64,000 nucleotides of DNA from NCBI RefSeq assembly GCF_001677475.2, contig NZ_CP015229.1; one strand, given 5' to 3'. A program made the translations under genes and the position numbers. Shown piece after piece: positions 35,045 to 55,246 of this stretch (the stretch's first letter is position 1; each line of letters begins with the position of its first letter). The DNA is from Escherichia coli (lineage in GTDB: Bacteria > Pseudomonadota > Gammaproteobacteria > Enterobacterales > Enterobacteriaceae). The notes under the pieces are model-generated. The model searched no databases. It had not been told where the DNA came from and was given only the letters and a program-made list of their open reading frames with translations.

Positions 35045-36178
35045 ATGTCATCACTGAATATTAAACAGGGAAGTGACGCTCATTTTCCTGAGTATCCTCT
35101 GGCGTCGCCCAGTAATAATGAAATTGATTTACTTAATCTAATCGAAGTTTTATGGCGGGCCAAAAAAACGGTCATGGCGGTCGTTTTTGCATTTGCCTGC
35201 GCAGGTTTACTGATCTCTTTCATCCTGCCGCAAAAATGGACCAGCTCAGCCGTTATTACTCCCGCCGAAGCCATTCAGTGGCAGGACCTGGAGAAAACCT
35301 TTACCAAACTCCGCGTTCTTGATCTCGATGTTAATATCGACCGTGGCGGTGCATTTAACCTGTTTATCAAGAAGTTTCAGTCGGTTAGCTTGCTGGAAGA
35401 GTACCTACGTTCATCACCTTATGTGATGGACCAATTAAAAGAGGCGAAAATCGACGAACTGGATTTGCATCGCGCAATTGTCGCATTGAGCGAAAAAATG
35501 AAAGCGGTTGATGACAATGCCAGTAAGAAAAAAGATGAACCGTCACTGTATACCTCCTGGACGCTAACTTTTACCGCACCAACCAGTGAAGAAGCGAAGA
35601 CCGTTTTGAGCGGGTATATCGATTATATCTCTGCGTTGGTGGTGAAAGAGTCGATAGAAAACGTCCGTAATAAACTGGAGATCAAAACCCAGTTTGAAAA
35701 AGAAAAACTGGCTCAGGATCGCATTAAAACGAAAAATCAACTTGATGCAAACATTCAGCGCCTCAATTATTCACTCGACATTGCCAACGCGGCAGGAATT
35801 AAAAAGCCCGTATACAGTAATGGTCAGGCCGTTAAAGATGACCCCGATTTCTCTATTTCTCTCGGCGCAGACGGTATTGAACGCAAACTGGAAATTGAAA
35901 AAGCGGTCACTGACGTTGCGGAACTGAACGGTGAATTACGTAATCGTCAGTATCTTGTTGAGCAGTTAACAAAAGCAAATATCAACGATGTGAATTTTAC
36001 GCCATTTAAATATCAGTTAAGCCCGTCATTGCCAGTGAAAAAAGACGGTCCGGGTAAGGCGATTATTGTGATCCTTTCCGCGTTGATCGGCGGAATGGTG
36101 GCTTGTGGTGGCGTGCTGTTGCGCCATGCGATGGCATCCAGAAAACAGGATGCCATGATGGCAGACCACTTAGTTTAA
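35045..36178 (+). CDS. fepE: Polysaccharide chain-length regulator (Wzz-like) FepE
   Basis: 377-aa ORF with N- and C-terminal TM segments. Confidence 0.9.
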   Translation: MSSLNIKQGSDAHFPEYPLASPSNNEIDLLNLIEVLWRAKKTVMAVVFAFACAGLLISFILPQKWTSSAVITPAEAIQWQDLEKTFTKLRVLDLDVNIDRGGAFNLFIKKFQSVSLLEEYLRSSPYVMDQLKEAKIDELDLHRAIVALSEKMKAVDDNASKKKDEPSLYTSWTLTFTAPTSEEAKTVLSGYIDYISALVVKESIENVRNKLEIKTQFEKEKLAQDRIKTKNQLDANIQRLNYSLDIANAAGIKKPVYSNGQAVKDDPDFSISLGADGIERKLEIEKAVTDVAELNGELRNRQYLVEQLTKANINDVNFTPFKYQLSPSLPVKKDGPGKAIIVILSALIGGMVACGGVLLRHAMASRKQDAMMADHLV

Positions 36179-40341: not shown

Positions 40342-40354
40342 CTAAAGGTGCATT

Positions 40355-40399
40355 TTCCCCTCACCCTAACCCTCTCCCCAAAGGGGCGAGGGGACTGTT
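40355..40399. repeat. GC-rich palindromic intergenic repeat, copy 1 (family name uncertain)
   Basis: ttcccctcaccctaaccctctccccaaaggggcgaggggactgtt; imperfect palindrome; near-identical element at 48749..48794. Confidence 0.6.
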
Positions 40400-40421
40400 A
40401 GTGCTCTAATTTTATGTTTTA

Positions 40422-46584: not shown

Positions 46585-48690
46585 ATGAACAAATCAGGGA
46601 AATACCTCGTCTGGACAGTGCTCTCTGTAATGGGAGCATTTGCTCTGGGATACATTGCTTTAAATCGTGGGGAACAGATCAACGCGCTGTGGATTGTGGT
46701 GGCGTCGGTCTGTATCTATCTGATCGCTTATCGTTTTTATGGTCTGTATATCGCCAAAAATGTGCTGGCGGTTGACCCGACGCGTATGACGCCAGCGGTG
46801 CGCCATAACGACGGGCTGGATTATGTGCCGACGGACAAGAAAGTGCTGTTCGGTCACCATTTTGCGGCCATTGCCGGAGCTGGTCCGTTGGTGGGGCCGG
46901 TGCTGGCAGCGCAAATGGGCTACCTGCCGGGGATGATCTGGCTGCTTGCTGGGGTGGTTCTCGCCGGTGCGGTACAGGATTTCATGGTGCTGTTTGTTTC
47001 CACGCGCCGTGACGGTCGCTCGCTGGGTGAGCTGGTCAAAGAAGAGATGGGGCCAACCGCCGGGGTGATTGCGCTGGTTGCCTGCTTTATGATCATGGTC
47101 ATCATCCTTGCCGTGCTGGCGATGATCGTGGTGAAAGCCCTGACCCATAGCCCGTGGGGAACGTATACCGTTGCGTTCACCATTCCGCTGGCGCTGTTCA
47201 TGGGGATCTACCTGCGCTATCTGCGTCCAGGGCGTATTGGCGAAGTGTCGGTCATTGGCCTGGTGTTCCTGATTTTCGCCATTATCTCTGGCGGCTGGGT
47301 GGCAGAAAGTCCGACCTGGGCACCGTACTTTGACTTTACCGGCGTGCAGCTGACCTGGATGCTGGTGGGTTACGGCTTCGTGGCGGCGGTGCTGCCGGTG
47401 TGGTTGCTGCTGGCCCCGCGTGACTACCTCTCAACCTTCCTGAAAATCGGGACTATTGTCGGTCTGGCGGTAGGCATTCTGATTATGCGCCCGACGCTGA
47501 CCATGCCTGCTCTGACCAAATTTGTTGATGGCACTGGCCCGGTATGGACCGGTAACCTGTTCCCGTTCCTGTTTATTACTATCGCCTGTGGCGCGGTGTC
47601 TGGCTTCCATGCGCTGATCTCTTCTGGCACCACGCCGAAGATGCTGGCGAACGAAGGGCAGGCGTGCTTTATCGGCTACGGTGGGATGTTAATGGAATCC
47701 TTCGTGGCGATTATGGCGCTGGTTTCCGCCTGTATCATCGATCCGGGCGTTTACTTCGCAATGAACAGCCCAATGGCGGTGCTGGCTCCGGCAGGGACGG
47801 CGGATGTGGTTGCTTCTGCCGCGCAGGTGGTGAGTAGCTGGGGCTTTGCGATTACCCCGGATACGCTAAACCAGATTGCCAGCGAAGTGGGTGAACAGTC
47901 GATCATTTCCCGTGCGGGCGGTGCGCCGACCCTGGCGGTGGGGATGGCCTACATTCTGCACGGTGCGCTGGGCGGCATGATGGATGTGGCGTTCTGGTAT
48001 CACTTCGCCATTCTGTTTGAAGCACTGTTTATTCTGACGGCGGTGGATGCAGGTACGCGTGCTGCGCGCTTTATGTTGCAGGATCTGCTGGGCGTGGTGT
48101 CTCCGGGCCTGAAACGGACAGATTCTCTGCCTGCTAACCTGCTGGCAACGGCGCTGTGTGTGCTGGCGTGGGGCTACTTCCTGCATCAGGGCGTGGTCGA
48201 TCCGCTGGGCGGTATTAACACCCTGTGGCCGCTGTTTGGTATTGCCAACCAGATGCTGGCAGGGATGGCGCTGATGCTCTGTGCCGTAGTGCTGTTCAAG
48301 ATGAAACGTCAACGTTACGCCTGGGTGGCGCTGGTGCCAACGGCCTGGCTGCTGATTTGTACCCTGACCGCAGGCTGGCAGAAAGCGTTCAGCCCGGATG
48401 CGAAAGTGGGCTTCCTGGCCATTGCTAATAAGTTCCAGGCAATGATCGACAGCGGTAATATTCCGTCGCAGTATACTGAGTCACAACTGGCGCAACTGGT
48501 GTTCAACAACCGTCTGGATGCCGGGTTGACCATCTTCTTTATGGTGGTTGTGGTGGTTCTGGCGCTGTTCTCGATTAAGACGGCACTGGCGGCATTGAAA
48601 GAGCCGAAGCCAACGGCGAAAGAAACGCCGTATGAGCCAATGCCGGAAAATGTCGAGGAGATCGTGGCGCAGGCGAAAGGCGCGCACTAA
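46585..48690 (+). CDS. cstA: Carbon starvation protein A (peptide/pyruvate transporter)
   Basis: 701-aa polytopic membrane ORF. Confidence 0.95.
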   Translation: MNKSGKYLVWTVLSVMGAFALGYIALNRGEQINALWIVVASVCIYLIAYRFYGLYIAKNVLAVDPTRMTPAVRHNDGLDYVPTDKKVLFGHHFAAIAGAGPLVGPVLAAQMGYLPGMIWLLAGVVLAGAVQDFMVLFVSTRRDGRSLGELVKEEMGPTAGVIALVACFMIMVIILAVLAMIVVKALTHSPWGTYTVAFTIPLALFMGIYLRYLRPGRIGEVSVIGLVFLIFAIISGGWVAESPTWAPYFDFTGVQLTWMLVGYGFVAAVLPVWLLLAPRDYLSTFLKIGTIVGLAVGILIMRPTLTMPALTKFVDGTGPVWTGNLFPFLFITIACGAVSGFHALISSGTTPKMLANEGQACFIGYGGMLMESFVAIMALVSACIIDPGVYFAMNSPMAVLAPAGTADVVASAAQVVSSWGFAITPDTLNQIASEVGEQSIISRAGGAPTLAVGMAYILHGALGGMMDVAFWYHFAILFEALFILTAVDAGTRAARFMLQDLLGVVSPGLKRTDSLPANLLATALCVLAWGYFLHQGVVDPLGGINTLWPLFGIANQMLAGMALMLCAVVLFKMKRQRYAWVALVPTAWLLICTLTAGWQKAFSPDAKVGFLAIANKFQAMIDSGNIPSQYTESQLAQLVFNNRLDAGLTIFFMVVVVVLALFSIKTALAALKEPKPTAKETPYEPMPENVEEIVAQAKGAH

Positions 48691-48748
48691 AGTCAGAGTG
48701 AGGGGGGAATGTTGGCGAATGTTGGCGAAAGTTGGCATGGTGCCGAGG

Positions 48749-48794
48749 GTTCCCCCTCACCCTAACCCTCTCCCCGGTGGGGTGAGGGGACTGA
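48749..48794. repeat. GC-rich palindromic intergenic repeat, copy 2
   Basis: gttccccctcaccctaaccctctccccggtggggtgaggggactga; near-identical to 40355..40399; preceded by three 10-mer direct repeats (gaatgttggc) at 48718..48747. Confidence 0.6.
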
Positions 48795-48853
48795 CCGAGC
48801 GCGTTGATAGCTATTAATGCACTCTCTCAGCAATCTGATTACCGGAGGTATTG

Positions 48854-49051
48854 ATGTTTGATTCACTGGCAAAAGCCGGAAAATATTTAGGTCAGGCGGC
48901 GAAGCTGATGATTGGTATGCCTGATTACGACAACTATGTCGAACATATGCGGGTTAACCATCCCGATCAAACGCCGATGACCTACGAAGAGTTTTTCCGT
49001 GAGCGGCAGGACGCGCGCTACGGTGGAAAAGGTGGCGCGCGCTGCTGCTAA
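48854..49051 (+). CDS. ybdD: Small protein YbdD (DUF466)
   Basis: 65 aa [33 protein letters not shown]...; downstream of cstA. Confidence 0.85.
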
Positions 49052-49060
49052 ATTTGTACG

Positions 49061-50149
49061 TCAGGCTTTAAACGATTCCACTTTTTCGAACGCTGCACGC
49101 AACGTATCTGGTGTCAGCGTGACTGGCAGGTAATGAATGGACTCCACCGGACGTAAGGTGTGGGCAATCACTTTGTCGATCTCCGCCTGATTATTGATAT
49201 CCACTTCCAGCTCCGCCAGCGTAGTCGGCAGATGAAAACGTTGATACGCCCCGGTTAATTGCGCCAGCACATCATCCTGACCCAGCAAGGCGCTTTGCAC
49301 CAGAATGCCGTAGGCGACTTTGGTGCCGTGGAGAAACTTCTCGGTTTGCGGCAAAACGGTCAGACCGTTATGCACGGCATGGGCCGCCGCCACACGCGTA
49401 AAACGATCGCCCAGACCACCGACCATCCCACCACCAGCAATAATAGCATCCACCACATCGCAAAATGATTGCGTTAACTGTTGTTTTTGCTGATCGCTCA
49501 GCGCCTGTTCGCTACTGTTTAACAAGACGTCGCGAATGGCCTGCGCATTATTGATCCCCAGACGCACGGTTAGCGGCAAGGTTTCTGGTTGCGGAGCCAG
49601 CACCACCGCTTCATACCATTTCGCCAGCGTGTCACCGATCCCCGCCAGCAGATATTCTTGCGGCGCATTGAGGATAATCTCTGGCTCCACCAGCACCATA
49701 AAATTGGCGTCGTCGAAAATCTCATAATGCAGCGCCTGTCCGGCATCGTTATACCAGACGGAGAGCGGTGTCCAGGCGGCGCAGGTGGCGGCGATCGTCG
49801 GAACGGCAACAAACGGCAGACCGAGACGGCGGGCGAGGGCTTTCGCGGTGTCGAGCAGTGCGCCGCCGCCGACGCCAATCACCACGCTGCGATCGTCACC
49901 GGACTCAGCCGCCAGGTGCTGTACATCGCTTTCGCTGCAATGACCGCGAAACAAAATATGCTTTGCACCAGGCAGTTGAAACGCTGGTGGAAGTCTGATT
50001 TGCGCCGCAGCAATGGCGCGTTCGCCGTAGATCCACACCGCGCGAGAAAGCTGTTCATCAGTGAAAAAGTCGTGCAGGTGATTGAAACTTCCTGGATGTG
50101 AAAAGTAGTTAGCCGGGCCGACGACGACGCGGATAGGATTGTGAGGCAT
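49061..50149 (-). CDS. ybdH: Iron-containing (glycerol dehydrogenase-like) alcohol dehydrogenase family protein YbdH
   Basis: 362-aa ORF. Confidence 0.85.
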   Translation of the reverse strand: MPHNPIRVVVGPANYFSHPGSFNHLHDFFTDEQLSRAVWIYGERAIAAAQIRLPPAFQLPGAKHILFRGHCSESDVQHLAAESGDDRSVVIGVGGGALLDTAKALARRLGLPFVAVPTIAATCAAWTPLSVWYNDAGQALHYEIFDDANFMVLVEPEIILNAPQEYLLAGIGDTLAKWYEAVVLAPQPETLPLTVRLGINNAQAIRDVLLNSSEQALSDQQKQQLTQSFCDVVDAIIAGGGMVGGLGDRFTRVAAAHAVHNGLTVLPQTEKFLHGTKVAYGILVQSALLGQDDVLAQLTGAYQRFHLPTTLAELEVDINNQAEIDKVIAHTLRPVESIHYLPVTLTPDTLRAAFEKVESFKA

Positions 50150-50257
50150 GTTGTGTTGTCCTTATTGTTTTATTTAGACATCTAAACGTCTTGATTGCCA
50201 AATACTAGCATCGTGTTATAGTGCCTTCAACACGCAACTTCGTCAGGCACAATAAAA

Positions 50258-51418
50258 ATGACAAATAACCCTCTGATTCCACAAAGCAAACTTCCACAAC
50301 TTGGCACTACCATTTTCACCCAGATGAGCGCGCTGGCGCAGCAACACCAGGCGATTAACCTGTCGCAAGGCTTTCCTGATTTTGATGGTCCGCGCTATTT
50401 ACAGGAGCGGCTGGCGTACCACGTTGCCCAGGGGGCAAACCAATACGCGCCCATGACCGGCGTGCAGGCCTTGCGCGAGGCGATTGCTCAGAAAACGGAA
50501 CGTTTGTATGGCTATCAACCAGATGCCGATAGCGATATCACCGTAACGGCAGGGGCGACGGAAGCGTTATATGCAGCGATTACCGCATTGGTGCGCAATG
50601 GTGATGAAGTGATCTGCTTTGATCCCAGCTATGACAGTTACGCGCCCGCCATCGCGCTTTCGGGGGGAATAGTGAAACGTATTGCACTGCAACCACCGCA
50701 TTTTCGCGTGGACTGGCAGGAATTTGCCGCATTGTTAAGCGAGCGCACCCGACTGGTGATCCTCAACACCCCGCATAACCCCAGTGCAACTGTCTGGCAG
50801 CAGGCTGATTTCGCCGCTTTGTGGCAGGCAATTGCCGGGCACGAGATTTTTGTCATTAGCGATGAAGTTTACGAGCACATCAACTTTTCACAACAGGGCC
50901 ATGCCAGCGTGCTGTCGCATCCGCAGCTGCGTGAGCGGGCGGTGGCAGTTTCTTCATTTGGCAAGACTTATCATATGACCGGCTGGAAAGTGGGTTATTG
51001 CGTTGCGCCAGCGCCCATCAGTGCCGAAATTCGCAAGGTACATCAGTATCTGACCTTTTCGGTAAATACCCCGGCGCAACTGGCGCTTGCCGATATGCTA
51101 CGTGCAGAACCTGAGCATTATCTTGCGTTACCGGACTTTTATCGCCAGAAACGCGATATTCTGGTGAATGCCTTAAGTGAGAGTCGGCTGGAGATTTTAC
51201 CGTGCGAAGGTACATACTTTTTGCTGGTGGATTACAGCGCCGTGTCTACGCTGGATGACGTTGAGTTTTGCCAGTGGCTGACGCGGGAGCACGGTGTAGC
51301 GGCGATTCCGCTGTCGGTGTTTTGCGCCGATCCCTTCCCCCATAAACTGATTCGTCTCTGTTTTGCCAAGAAGGAATCGACGTTGCTGGCAGCAGCTGAA
51401 CGCCTGCGCCAGCTGTAG
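50258..51418 (+). CDS. ybdL: PLP-dependent methionine aminotransferase YbdL
   Basis: 386-aa ORF; class I aminotransferase. Confidence 0.9.
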   Translation: MTNNPLIPQSKLPQLGTTIFTQMSALAQQHQAINLSQGFPDFDGPRYLQERLAYHVAQGANQYAPMTGVQALREAIAQKTERLYGYQPDADSDITVTAGATEALYAAITALVRNGDEVICFDPSYDSYAPAIALSGGIVKRIALQPPHFRVDWQEFAALLSERTRLVILNTPHNPSATVWQQADFAALWQAIAGHEIFVISDEVYEHINFSQQGHASVLSHPQLRERAVAVSSFGKTYHMTGWKVGYCVAPAPISAEIRKVHQYLTFSVNTPAQLALADMLRAEPEHYLALPDFYRQKRDILVNALSESRLEILPCEGTYFLLVDYSAVSTLDDVEFCQWLTREHGVAAIPLSVFCADPFPHKLIRLCFAKKESTLLAAAERLRQL

Positions 51419-52048
51419 TTATTTAACCGTCCAGGCGCGGGAAAATTGACGGTCGGCAAACAGTTCTTGCAGGCCGTTAATTTGCTTCAGGCGCAGCACT
51501 TCGTCGCTGTCCATTCCCAGCTCTTTGCCGATTTTATGATCGTCCCATCCCAACTGGCTGAGTTCACGAACAATTTCGGACATGGCAGTGATTTGGTGGC
51601 GACCACGAGCGCGGTTATGACGAATAGTCGCGGCGATGCGTTGATTACGCGTACCTTCCAGACAGGTCACCGGCAAATAACCTTTTAAGCGTAATTTTAA
51701 CGATGATGAGCCTTTACCAATTTCATGGCGGTGAAAACCATCCACGATTTCCAGGGCATTTTTATCCGTATGCGTGACCACAATGGGTTGGGTAAAACCA
51801 TCTATTTCAATGGATTTTTTCAGCAGTTTTTTTTCGGGTGGTGCCACGTTGTTTGGGTTGTAATCATTAGGCATAAGTTGGCTGTTTTTAACCCACAGAA
51901 CGCAATCCACTGGCTCTTCTCGAAAGGGGCTAACCTGATGGATCGCCATGCGGATTTCATTAATCGCTTTGATGCGATCGTCTTCCGGCAAGCTGGCGAG
52001 AAATTGGGTTAAATCCTGCGTTAATCGTTGTTGCATAGTATCCCCCAT
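51419..52048 (-). CDS. ybdM: ParB/sulfiredoxin-like domain protein YbdM (IbrB-like)
   Basis: 209-aa ORF with DGFHRH motif (IVDGFHRHEIG); overlaps ybdN by 28 nt. Confidence 0.85.
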   Translation of the reverse strand: MGDTMQQRLTQDLTQFLASLPEDDRIKAINEIRMAIHQVSPFREEPVDCVLWVKNSQLMPNDYNPNNVAPPEKKLLKKSIEIDGFTQPIVVTHTDKNALEIVDGFHRHEIGKGSSSLKLRLKGYLPVTCLEGTRNQRIAATIRHNRARGRHQITAMSEIVRELSQLGWDDHKIGKELGMDSDEVLRLKQINGLQELFADRQFSRAWTVK

Positions 52049-53241
52049 TCCTGACGTTTTCCTTTTATTCGTTCGTTATAACGCTGATAGTTCTTCGCTT
52101 TGGTCGGGCTAAATGATAATGCCCGACACCAGTAATCGTTATTGAGTAAAACTTTGCATATTCGCCGCCAGGAGGGGATATCTTTCGCGCCAATGTCCCC
52201 TTGCTGGGTTTGTGGAACCTCGATGCCTTTTTTCTGATACCAGTGCAAATAAATGGCGATTTTATTGCGATAATGCTCAGCTGTTTTCTCCGGCATGCTG
52301 TTGAGTAGCAATAATGCATACTCCTGCCAGTCTAAATGTTCGGGCTTGAGGATTTTCCGATGACCATAAAAATGGTTGTCATGTCCGGCGTAAATGCCGC
52401 CACTTTTTACCCCGCTGACTCGTGCGCACATAGCAGCCCAGCGATCCGGTTCGATAACGTGATAGAGCCATAATCCTTGCCGTTGTTCCGGACCAAAAGG
52501 TTCGCAAATTCGCATATGACGCAGAGGAACGCCTGCCTGATACATTAGGTTATACAGTGGGTTGCAGAGACTTTGATGATTTGCATACCAGGTCCAGATA
52601 TCAGCCACTTTCCAGTCGTAGATGGGGTAAATGTACCAACTATGACCGCCTGGTGCGGCAGTAGTCCAGGGCTTATCATCGGCAAAACGTTGTTTATTTA
52701 AACTGGCGATGGCGACAAAACGGTTGTAGGACTCATCCGCACGGATGCCGATCATCATCGCCGCCGGACGTTTTTGCGAAAACCATTCGGCAAACTCACG
52801 CACAAATTGTTCGAAGGTCATGCCAGGCTGGTAAAAGGAGAAAAAGTCAGGATCGGTTATCGCATCTTGCGGGGGCTGACGTACCCATTCGACATCAGGT
52901 TCCCAGCACTGCCATTCGGGTTGGTATTGTGATAGGGAATTTTGCGTTGTAAGCGGGAGCGCAACCCAGTAAAACTCTTCGATGACATCGGTGTACAACT
53001 CGCGCAGAGACTGAACATAGTTAATGGTGCAAGAGAACTGAGCTTCCCAGTCGATAAATAAAACACAAATTTTTTTGCCCATTTGTCGGGCAAGTTCGGC
53101 GGTCAGATGCAGCATTAATCCGGAATCTTTACCACCCGAAAAAGAAACGCAGACGCGGGGTAGGGTGTTAAGTGTCCAGGTAATACGTTCTTTTGCAGCT
53201 TCCAGAATATTCAGTGGAAGCGGGATTTTATAAATAGACAT
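52021..53241 (-). CDS. ybdN: PAPS reductase-like PP-loop ATPase family protein YbdN (IbrA-like)
   Basis: 406-aa ORF with PP-loop motif SFSGGKDSG near N-terminus. Confidence 0.85.
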   Translation of the reverse strand: MSIYKIPLPLNILEAAKERITWTLNTLPRVCVSFSGGKDSGLMLHLTAELARQMGKKICVLFIDWEAQFSCTINYVQSLRELYTDVIEEFYWVALPLTTQNSLSQYQPEWQCWEPDVEWVRQPPQDAITDPDFFSFYQPGMTFEQFVREFAEWFSQKRPAAMMIGIRADESYNRFVAIASLNKQRFADDKPWTTAAPGGHSWYIYPIYDWKVADIWTWYANHQSLCNPLYNLMYQAGVPLRHMRICEPFGPEQRQGLWLYHVIEPDRWAAMCARVSGVKSGGIYAGHDNHFYGHRKILKPEHLDWQEYALLLLNSMPEKTAEHYRNKIAIYLHWYQKKGIEVPQTQQGDIGAKDIPSWRRICKVLLNNDYWCRALSFSPTKAKNYQRYNERIKGKRQEWGILCNND

Positions 53242-53387
53242 CTGAAAACGCTCTCTGAACGTTACGGGGTGATCAGTGAGATAAGACTGTTAATTATAAA
53301 GTAAACACTGTAAAGCAGAGTGTTTTATTTTTCATTCGCGCCGTGAATAAATAGATGAAAGTTATAGTAGCTGTCTGAAGTTATATA

Positions 53388-54290
53388 TCAAAAACTCTCA
53401 TTTAGGCGGTCAATAAATCGGGAGAACACCAGGTTATTTAAAGAAGATTTATTATAGGAAATGTAAAGCTTTATTGAAGGTAACGGATGCTCTAGTTTTA
53501 TCTCTTTTAAATTAAGAAAGTCACGGTGGGAGTTATAAAGTTCATAGGGAACTATTCCCAGTAAATCTGTAACTGCAATGCTATTAATGATTGTCAGCAA
53601 AGAGGAACCACGAAATGAAATTTTGCGATTCATAAACTTCTCATCTATTTCCATTTGAATATCATCAACCCCTGCTGATTTGGATATTAATTGGGTGAAC
53701 TCTTCTGCCATAATTTGCTCATAAGTGCTATTGTCAGTAATTCGCGGATGCTTATTACTACAAATTAGAGTATTGCGAATTGTATGCAATGGCATGCAAA
53801 TAACGGAACGGCTGATTACTGGCATTTGGGTGATCACCAGATCGGCTTTGCGGTGAACCAACAGTTCTTCAGCATTCTCTGCTGACATGAGGATATCATG
53901 GCACTCAATCTCGACAGAGGCATCTTGTCGTAGGCAGCGGATCAGCATACTATTATTAGAGCAAGAAATGAGCTGAGGGCCGTAGATAATAAAATTTTTC
54001 TTTAGTTCGGACTTATTGACTATATTAATTGTTTGTTCAAGGTCTCTGAGATTTTTCTCAAGATGGTGATGCAGATTTAACCCTGTCGTCGTCGGCGCGA
54101 TACCTTTTCCTGAGCGAATGAATAAAGGGTCATTAAATTGCGCACGTAAGCGTTGTAACGACTGGCTCACGGCTGATGGGGTGATATATAGTGATTCAGC
54201 AGCCTTGCTAATGCTTAAATGCTGATAAATACACTCAAATATGACAAGAAGATTTAAGTCGAACTTTTTCAAGTCGTAGAGATTGGCCAT
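53388..54290 (-). CDS. ybdO: LysR-family transcriptional regulator YbdO
   Basis: 300-aa ORF with N-terminal HTH (ISKAAESLYITPSAVSQSLQRLR). Confidence 0.85.
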   Translation of the reverse strand: MANLYDLKKFDLNLLVIFECIYQHLSISKAAESLYITPSAVSQSLQRLRAQFNDPLFIRSGKGIAPTTTGLNLHHHLEKNLRDLEQTINIVNKSELKKNFIIYGPQLISCSNNSMLIRCLRQDASVEIECHDILMSAENAEELLVHRKADLVITQMPVISRSVICMPLHTIRNTLICSNKHPRITDNSTYEQIMAEEFTQLISKSAGVDDIQMEIDEKFMNRKISFRGSSLLTIINSIAVTDLLGIVPYELYNSHRDFLNLKEIKLEHPLPSIKLYISYNKSSLNNLVFSRFIDRLNESF

Positions 54291-54499
54291 ACACTACTCC
54301 GGTTATATTTTTCTTCCATGGTATATTCACTTAATCAATGTTTTTTTGCGTATATATTTTTATTGATTATATTTTTTTGCTTAACTCAGGATTAAGTTTT
54401 TCTAAAATAGCACAGCCACTTAGGGCAGAGCGAGCAATTCATGCTTTTTTAGGATGGTTGAAAAGCAGGGATGTATTTCAACCATCCATGAATTATCTT

Positions 54500-55246
54500 T
54501 TATTTATTCCCCATAATGATATTAAGCGTTTTCTGATCGGGCAACCCCACGGCCTGTTGCAGCGTATTTTCCTTACTCATGTAATAGATAGCTGGTGTGA
54601 CATTTGCCCCCAGATCGTCCATGAGTTTTTCGTTGTCGCTTAACACTTTCATTTGCTCTGTACTTACGTTTGCAGGCACGTTTAGCTTAAGCTTGCCACC
54701 AGAGGATTCATATTCTTGCCAGGTTTTTGCGGGATCTTTGGAGGCAAGAATTGCCGCTGCTGTAGCCGGGCTTTCTGGCTTGATAACCCCAACCAACAAT
54801 GTTCTTAATTGCACTTTGCCAGAATCTACCCACGGGCGCGCCTGCTGCCAGAACTGTTTACAATATGGGCAGAACGGATCGGCGAAGACGTAGACAATGA
54901 CCGGCGCATCTTTTTTACCGTCGAGGAGCCAGTGGGATTGTTCCATCCGTTGCCACATTTCGCGTCCGGCTGGTGCGTAAATTTCTTTTTCGATAAGTGT
55001 GTTACTCAGGTTTTCACCTTTCTCGTTGTACATGTAACCGGATATGGCGTGCTTACCATCTGGAGTCAGGTAGATGGTGACGCCCATATCCTGATACTTT
55101 CCGAGATAACCTTTCATTCCTCCGGGGGCATCGAACGTTTTGATGATTGTAATGCCCTGTTTTTCAATCGCTTTTACTGGGGCAGGAAGTTCCTCTGCGA
55201 AGGCGATTGCTGGAAGCAGAGCCAGTAAAAGTATCTTTTTTAACAT
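54500..55246 (-). CDS. dsbG: Periplasmic thiol:disulfide oxidoreductase DsbG
   Basis: Start trimmed to [17 protein letters not shown] (cat at 55244..55246); CPYC active site; 248 aa. Confidence 0.95.

Follow-up and report, generated by a model that had tools for sequence, protein, structure and literature searches.

At one locus of Escherichia coli, the stop codon of ybdL is followed directly by the stop codon of ybdM on the opposite strand. This raises the question whether the missing spacer is an error in a gene end, an ordinary compact layout or a device through which the two transcription units regulate each other. The junction was analysed in a stretch of 64,000 nucleotides of contig NZ_CP015229.1 (assembly GCF_001677475.2), referred to below as the window, and compared with orthologous loci and published transcriptome data.

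Results

Gene ends at the ybdL/ybdM junction

The ybdL coding sequence, encoding a methionine aminotransferase of 386 aa, occupies positions 50258..51418 of the plus strand and ends with the stop TAG at 51416-51418. The ybdM coding sequence (51419..52048, minus strand) encodes a ParB-N/IbrB-like protein of 209 aa, and its stop TAA appears on the plus strand as TTA at 51419-51421. As read from the sequence and the list of open reading frames, the plus strand at the junction (51416..51421, assigned to neither strand) is ...CAG CTG TAG/TTA TTT AAC CGT..., with 0 intergenic bases between the abutting stops. The original prediction of a convergent pair with zero intergenic bases was thereby borne out, and the span 51405-51432 reported in it does bracket the junction. 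With an intergenic distance of 0, the genes are an abutting or overlapping convergent pair of coding sequences (distance ≤0), and they are adjacent genes on opposite strands, as is asked of a convergent excludon.

Since convergent ends are stop codons, the gene ends are fixed once the reading frames are right. Residues 1-386 of YbdL aligned with residues 1-386 of the crystallised E. coli YbdL (PDB 1U08, E = 4e-261), and the match to the NCBIfam methionine aminotransferase model NF006569 (1.4e-213) extended up to residue 386 of 386; a match to Pfam Aminotran_1_2 was also obtained. The C-terminus ...AWTVK of YbdM was conserved in more than 30 orthologues. The similarity of YbdM to Pfam ParB_N was 24.6 bits, just under the cut-off of 26.3 bits, and in RefSeq the product, with the same gene end, is named 'IbrB-like domain-containing protein'. 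The RefSeq/PGAP annotation of a K-12-type strain has the same abutment (ybdL 2859..4019, plus; ybdM 4020..4649, minus), and that of the closest E. coli is identical. In an alignment of 32 orthologous junctions, variation at third codon positions reached both stops. Corrected gene ends with a spacer between them were looked for and were not found; wrong ends are ruled out by the full-length 1U08 and NF006569 matches together with the C-termini of the orthologues.

Frequency of convergent pairs lacking a spacer

The base rate was determined in six 50-kb stretches (300 kb) of the K-12-type annotation, which contained 43 convergent pairs. The spacer was ≤0 in five of these and ≤10 nt in ten. The five pairs were ybdL-ybdM (0), fepC-fepE, rfaH-tatD and yfcJ-flk (-4 each) and ynfK(bioD)-clcB (-48); a spacer of exactly 0 was found for ybdL-ybdM only. 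When the region chosen for holding the target was set aside, the spacer was ≤0 in 3 of 35 pairs. With 704 convergent pairs in E. coli, the number given in a preprint, the sampled rate predicts several dozen pairs without a spacer in the whole genome. Abutting or overlapping ends thus occur in roughly one convergent pair in ten, and a spacer of exactly 0 is one point along a continuous range.

The four overlapping pairs and ynfC-speG (+2 nt) belong to the same structural class as ybdL-ybdM: in all of them a terminator cannot fit between the genes, and 3' extensions are necessarily antisense. They differ in that those pairs share or nearly share stop bases, whereas the stops of ybdL and ybdM are exactly adjacent and the two frames are consequently in codon register. 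The 4-nt overlap of fepE and fepC is present in this same window.

Conservation of the zero spacer

A scan with YbdM, using one genome per species, gave 58 loci, and ybdM and ybdL were adjacent and convergent in 34 species-level genomes from eight genera (Escherichia, Citrobacter, Enterobacter, Lelliottia, Huaxiibacter, Klebsiella, Superficieibacter and one enterobacterial MAG). Salmonella, not recovered by the pattern-based genome scan, stands outside this count. The spacing was exactly 0 in 32 of the 34; the same 13-nt insert was present in the other two, both Citrobacter (L008 and L014). The junction alignment (32 sequences, 120 columns, eight genera) was gapless while the stop codons changed repeatedly, being TAG, TGA or TAA in ybdL and TAA or TAG in ybdM, and the identity of YbdM in Klebsiella and Enterobacter was 63-70%. 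Within E. coli, 29 full-length matches were taken at regular intervals from the ranked list of 5,419 matching genomes, and all 29 spanned exactly 1,001 bases, which shows no net insertion or deletion in this 1-kb region.

Other close-set junctions nearby, examined as controls, proved not to be stable. The ybdD-hcxA spacer was 8-9 nt in Escherichia and 11, 98, 144 and 191 nt in Citrobacter, and the entS-fepB spacer was 3 nt in K-12 versus 80 nt in this window, due to the insertion of a GC-rich repeat. As a third control, in Citrobacter and Trabulsiella species which do not carry ybdL-hcxA, the distance between ybdM and ybdD, which then face each other, was 10 to about 870 nt. The ybdL/ybdM abutment is at least as old as the common ancestor of Escherichia, Citrobacter, Enterobacter and Klebsiella.

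Search for terminators and structures

In a terminator scan of 5.5 kb, the junction was free of sites, as was the whole minus strand. The number of terminator-like sites in the region, 3, was lower than the 7.1 expected from shuffled sequences; hairpins followed by a T-tract were located on the plus strand at 51296-51314 and 52386-52399. Folding of the junction in 51- and 91-nt windows on either strand was no better than that of shuffled sequences (z = +0.24 to -1.14), and no inverted repeat was found there. Across the junction, a weak stem of 6-8 bp is possible (CGCCTG...CAGGCG, z = -0.8 to -0.9, with a loop of about 25 nt), and a U-tract follows it on neither strand. Its arms are the codons for Arg-Leu in ybdL and Ala-Trp in ybdM, the variants CAGACG, AAGGCG and CAAACG in the 32 orthologous junctions showed no compensatory change, and RNAalifold on the same junctions predicted no pair across alignment columns 44-89 and did not recover the stem. 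This small stem is a by-product of conserved codons.

No Rfam family was detected at the junction when positions 48500-54500 were searched with covariance models at E up to 1. The sole hit in this region, a mir-423 match at 48687-48771, was spurious; it lies in the cstA-ybdD spacer, beside a repeat copy at 48754-48775.

At synonymous sites, the last 20 codons of ybdL were as variable (1.19 bits) as the gene as a whole (0.80-1.35 bits), which indicates that no hidden element is located there. In the last 20 codons of ybdM, a dip to 0.81 from 1.27 bits was determined (n = 7, one-sided p = 0.03); the statistic is uncorrected for relatedness and codon degeneracy and was judged not robust. A GC-rich hairpin with a U-tract or A-tract across the gene ends, as in intrinsic and bidirectional terminators, was absent from the junction, and a terminator or hairpin was rejected at this position by the consensus scan, folding, inverted repeats, Rfam and RNAalifold. 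That the genes leave no room for separate terminators, as had been proposed, is therefore supported by the zero spacer and by all of these searches.

Overlap of the transcripts

As each mRNA must include its own stop codon and the spacer is 0, any 3' extension is antisense to the opposing gene. The original prediction had stated that the transcripts must run into each other and that antisense interference between the aminotransferase gene and the ybdNM module could result. The first part holds, there being neither room nor a site for a terminator; the interference is unsupported, and the citR-deletion study described below does not name ybdL anywhere in its main text.

The K-12 counterpart is among the 165 MG1655 convergent excludons listed by ExcludonFinder (Sanmartin et al., NAR 2025, PMC12288877, Table 1), for which overlapping transcripts were detected in at least 50% of 58 RNA-seq samples. 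The neighbouring pair ybdD-hcxA is also listed, and synteny was reported to be higher for excludon pairs than for other neighbours (PMC12288877). All pairs of the catalogue are, like ybdL-ybdM, adjacent genes on opposite strands; their mean spacer is 95 nt compared with 0 here. The catalogue shows overlap and not reciprocal regulation, so ybdL-ybdM is a convergent excludon by transcript overlap only, and at a zero spacer the overlap criterion of the tool is satisfied almost automatically.

Overlapping 3' ends are frequent in E. coli. Of 370 convergent operons, 276 (about 75%) overlapped by a mean of 286 nt (Conway et al. 2014, PMC4161252). Those operons share complementary 3' ends with ybdL-ybdM; their overlaps usually arise from leaky terminators, in contrast to ybdL-ybdM, where the absence of any place for an intergenic terminator makes the overlap inevitable. 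The bidirectional terminators of Ju et al. 2019, as they are described in a later preprint (bioRxiv 10.1101/2022.10.23.513370), are intergenic hairpin-encoding sequences which fix the site of polymerase collision. Head-on polymerases in vitro gave heterogeneous collision sites and ends when a positioning hairpin was lacking (bioRxiv 10.1101/2022.10.23.513370). Judged by that description, ybdL-ybdM shares convergent transcription with these sites, which makes head-on encounters a plausible contributor to its transcript ends, but it carries no hairpin element of that kind and is not a bidirectional terminator site.

Two C-rich, G-poor stretches were found in the possible extensions. One lies on the plus strand at 51497..51574 (C/G 2.0), +79..156 after the ybdL stop and antisense to ybdM; the other lies on the minus strand at 51133..51314 (C/G 1.5-1.9), +105..286 after the ybdM stop and antisense to ybdL. 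Both are candidate Rho-loading regions on untranslated extensions by their composition; such windows are common, and the evidence is weak. No 3'-end map covering ybdL, ybdM and ybdN was found in a literature search.

Regulators on the two sides

A sigma-70 promoter of ybdL (TTGCCA-16-TATAGT with an extended -10 TG, 10/12 by consensus only) was predicted at 50195..50222 on the plus strand. Just upstream of its -35 element, the motif search revealed tandem octamers resembling a MetJ box, AGACATCTAAACGTCT, at 50176..50191 (plus strand). With 2 mismatches to the double met-box, this was the sole match in the window, where 0.10 would be expected by chance. MetJ control of the ybdL cluster has been predicted previously, and Salmonella ybdL, ybdH (hcxA), ybdD and ybdM have been reported to follow the met regulon (PMC11481890). 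These four are the two divergent genes flanking the MetJ-like box and their two convergent neighbours; ybdN is absent from the set. The composition of this gene set suggests read-through, the strandedness of the data being unstated in PMC11481890.

On the other side, ybdN (52021..53241, minus strand; 406 aa) is the upstream gene of the ybdNM operon and overlaps ybdM by 28 nt, an overlap kept in all measurable loci except one (L025). The ybdNM module is IbrA/IbrB-like, YbdN being PAPS-reductase-like with DUF3440 and YbdM ParB-N-like. A PADLOC scan of the two proteins for a defence system gave only sub-threshold similarities to DndC, BrxP and MTase. The operon is repressed by CitR and has low base means of 36 and 20; deletion of citR increased ybdN by log2 5.5 and ybdM by log2 2.5 (PMC9068703). 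The main text of that study, including the table of differential expression, does not mention ybdL. This speaks against a strong influence on ybdL, in an experiment not designed to detect it. In a rough back-calculation from the published means and fold changes, the induced ybdM counts were comparable with the length-scaled ybdN level, with no indication that signal drops across the distal gene, and the uninduced background was higher on ybdM. This pattern would be consistent with steady antisense read-through from ybdL, provided that the counting was not strand-aware; strandedness is unstated in PMC9068703.

Discussion

The abutment of ybdL and ybdM is real and was correctly read; it was already known from standard annotation and from the excludon catalogue, and it is an ordinary layout. 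The new observation is that the exact zero spacer is deeply conserved while the stop codons vary. It is a modest addition and is best explained by constraint. We consider it probable, with fairly high confidence, that the junction is an ordinary, maximally compact convergent junction frozen by constraint, with no dedicated regulatory device.

The constraint can be derived from the reading frames. Loss of the ybdL stop would lead to the next in-frame stop after 89 codons, and loss of the ybdM stop after 73. At a spacer of 0 both frames are in codon register, and a stop in one of them corresponds to TTA, CTA or TCA in the other. Since these are rare sense codons, the ybdL frame continues into an 80-aa shadow ORF, present in the ORF list at 51446..51688 (plus strand), which is antisense to ybdM and is not a gene. 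The spacer cannot shrink further because the loss of either stop would add 89 or 73 residues; deletions and stop-loss substitutions would presumably be purged by selection. Growth of the spacer would be possible solely by insertion at a single position and seems to have happened once, with the 13 nt of the Citrobacter freundii group. For a target of one site, roughly one insertion would be expected under neutrality; this estimate was reasoned loosely from general rates of indels and substitutions and not calculated. Selection for the overlap itself is unnecessary to explain the conservation, although the exact conservation over eight genera could also reflect it.

For the transcripts, a frozen junction would mean that all ybdL mRNAs end in a 3' extension antisense to ybdM, and all ybdNM mRNAs in one antisense to ybdL. 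Termination would probably be diffuse, with a possible role for Rho on the untranslated extensions and perhaps for polymerases meeting head-on. With ybdNM kept near silent by CitR/H-NS and ybdL probably under MetJ, the overlap would likely have little effect on expression in most conditions.

The explanations which compete with a frozen junction differ in what they require of the locus. An artefact of annotation or sequence, with one gene end wrong and an ordinary spacer present, is hardly conceivable: the stop positions are set by reading frames which are supported to the last residue, third-position variation continues right up to both stops, and the RefSeq ends are identical. Alternatively, intrinsic or bidirectional terminators might be hidden inside the 3' coding ends, limiting the overlap of the transcripts to a few tens of bases. 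The catalogue lends this some plausibility, as TransTermHP terminators lie within the neighbouring transcription unit in 146 of the 165 convergent excludons, a count which does not specify this pair, and the weak stem across the junction and the two hairpins on the plus strand point in the same direction. We nevertheless regard such terminators as quite improbable. The stem at the junction encloses about 25 nt, lacks a U-tract, has uncompensated variants and is not recovered by RNAalifold. Use of the site at 51296, 100 nt upstream of the ybdL stop, would produce a non-stop mRNA. In addition, terminator-like sites are fewer than in shuffled sequences and synonymous variability in ybdL is not reduced.

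A further alternative is a selected excludon, in which the zero spacer would be kept so that the aminotransferase gene, controlled by MetJ, and ybdNM, silenced by CitR/H-NS, are expressed in a mutually exclusive manner, because polymerases collide, because RNase III cuts the RNA duplex, or both. Its listing as an excludon in at least half of the MG1655 samples, the greater synteny of excludon pairs, the abutment in 32 of 34 genomes while neighbouring junctions vary, the different predicted regulators on the two sides and the weak synonymous dip at the ybdM 3' end are all in its favour. Against it, ybdL is absent from the main text and table of the citR-deletion study despite the strong induction of ybdN, and the rough estimate for induced ybdM reveals no distal loss. 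Moreover, the overlap criterion is near-automatic at this spacing, both the 13-nt insert and the complete loss of ybdL occur in nature, and constraint on the two stop codons accounts for the conservation. Such selection is thus unlikely, though less so than hidden terminators. In the strongest form, the stop-to-stop abutment would itself be under selection as a transcriptional interlock: derepression of the MetJ-controlled ybdL could send antisense transcription through ybdM and keep the horizontally spread IbrA/IbrB-like ybdNM silent, and the reverse could also occur. We find this form doubtful, somewhat more so than the selected excludon in general; if it were true, methionine and sulfur status would be coupled to a module of unknown function. 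Regulatory interference between ybdL and ybdNM is unproven.

The junction is of practical interest for the reading of expression data. RNA-seq which is not strand-specific would score read-through from ybdL as ybdM and read-through from hcxA as ybdD, and such miscounting may explain the published met-regulon-like behaviour of ybdM and ybdD. The two sides appear to be separately regulated, CitR control being published for ybdNM and MetJ control predicted for ybdL, and natural variants are at hand in the Citrobacter with a 13-nt spacer, such as Citrobacter youngae, and in the lineages without ybdL. The locus is therefore a clean natural case for asking whether an obligatory 3' overlap has a regulatory cost.

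Gene junctions of ybdL, ybdM and ybdN

The convergent ybdL and ybdM stop codons abut without a spacer, and the sole departure from this zero spacing among the 34 species-level genomes was a 13-nt insert between the two stops in the genomes of Citrobacter sp. Cu233 and of C. youngae. The insert occupies positions 3631-3643 at both loci (L008, CGAAATCACGTCA; L014, CGAAATCGCGTCA) and contains no hairpin. The end of ybdN and the start of ybdM, which are transcribed together from the minus strand, overlap by 28 nt (52021-52048). The same overlap of exactly 28 nt was determined at every measurable locus except L025 of the YbdM scan, where it was 40 nt.

Expression of ybdM and its neighbours

Upon deletion of citR in K-12, ybdN was elevated by a log2 value of 5.5 and the co-operonic ybdM by only 2.5 (PMC9068703). 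In Salmonella, the met regulon was tracked by ybdM, ybdD, ybdL and ybdH and not by ybdN (PMC11481890). Such patterns would arise in both cases if reads from antisense read-through of ybdL and hcxA had been attributed to the expression of ybdM and ybdD. A genomic SELEX peak of a minor-sigma RNA polymerase holoenzyme has been reported inside ybdL, at K-12 coordinate 633930 (PMC5493296).

The divergent spacer between hcxA and ybdL contains a predicted MetJ-box-like tandem sequence, AGACATCTAAACGTCT, at 50176-50191 on the plus strand. The window contains no second match of this kind, compared with 0.10 matches expected by chance, and the -35 element of the predicted ybdL promoter (50195-50222) lies directly downstream of it.

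Other tight convergent junctions

The coding ends of fepE (+) and fepC (-) overlap by 4 nt at 36175-36178, and the layout is the same in K-12. The K-12 spacers of two further convergent pairs in this region, yldA-ybdR and ybdD-hcxA, are 3 and 9 nt long, respectively. Tight convergent junctions are unusually dense in this part of the genome. The ybdD-hcxA spacer of the window is also 9 nt (49052-49060) and varies from 8 to 191 nt across Escherichia and Citrobacter; this pair is also contained in the published MG1655 list of excludons, opposite-strand neighbours with overlapping transcripts (PMC12288877). In the Enterobacter and Klebsiella loci, no hcxA was found beside ybdL.

Dispersed repeat and origin of the window

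A dispersed repeat that is palindromic and rich in GC, CCCTCACCCTAACCCTCTCCCC...GGGGCGAGGGGAC, is present in two copies in the window. The copy at 40358-40379 fills the entS-fepB spacer (40342-40421), which is 80 nt long compared with 3 nt in K-12; the fepB stop also differs from that of K-12. The other copy (48754-48775) lies in the cstA-ybdD spacer, where an adjacent Rfam match to mir-423 was rejected as spurious.

In three 1-kb test stretches (46600-47600, 50900-51900 and 52100-53100), the identity to most of the 5,400 complete E. coli genomes was about 96-97%, and the top matches, strain ECA64 and a marmot isolate, reached 97.3-99.7%. Judged by these identities, the window likely originates from a divergent Escherichia lineage and not from typical E. 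coli.

YbdM/YbdN pairs in distant taxa

Two database hits, a 259-bp contig assigned to Alkalicoccobacillus (L049) and a 2.5-kb contig of a Bacteroides MAG (L060), probably represent contamination or mis-binning: their protein segments are 98-100% identical to the window's Escherichia YbdM and to its YbdM, YbdN and CitR, respectively, although neither taxon is related to Escherichia. YbdM/YbdN-like pairs with identities of 41-58% and 29-51% were found at L041-L045, L050-L054 and L056-L059, in Clostridia, Treponema, Pacearchaeota, Dactylosporangium, Vibrio, Shewanella, Enterococcus and Finegoldia. Among these pairs the two genes occur in either order, and ybdL adjoins none of the pairs. The distant distribution, the two gene orders and the absence of an adjacent ybdL together suggest that ybdM and ybdN form a horizontally mobile two-gene module.
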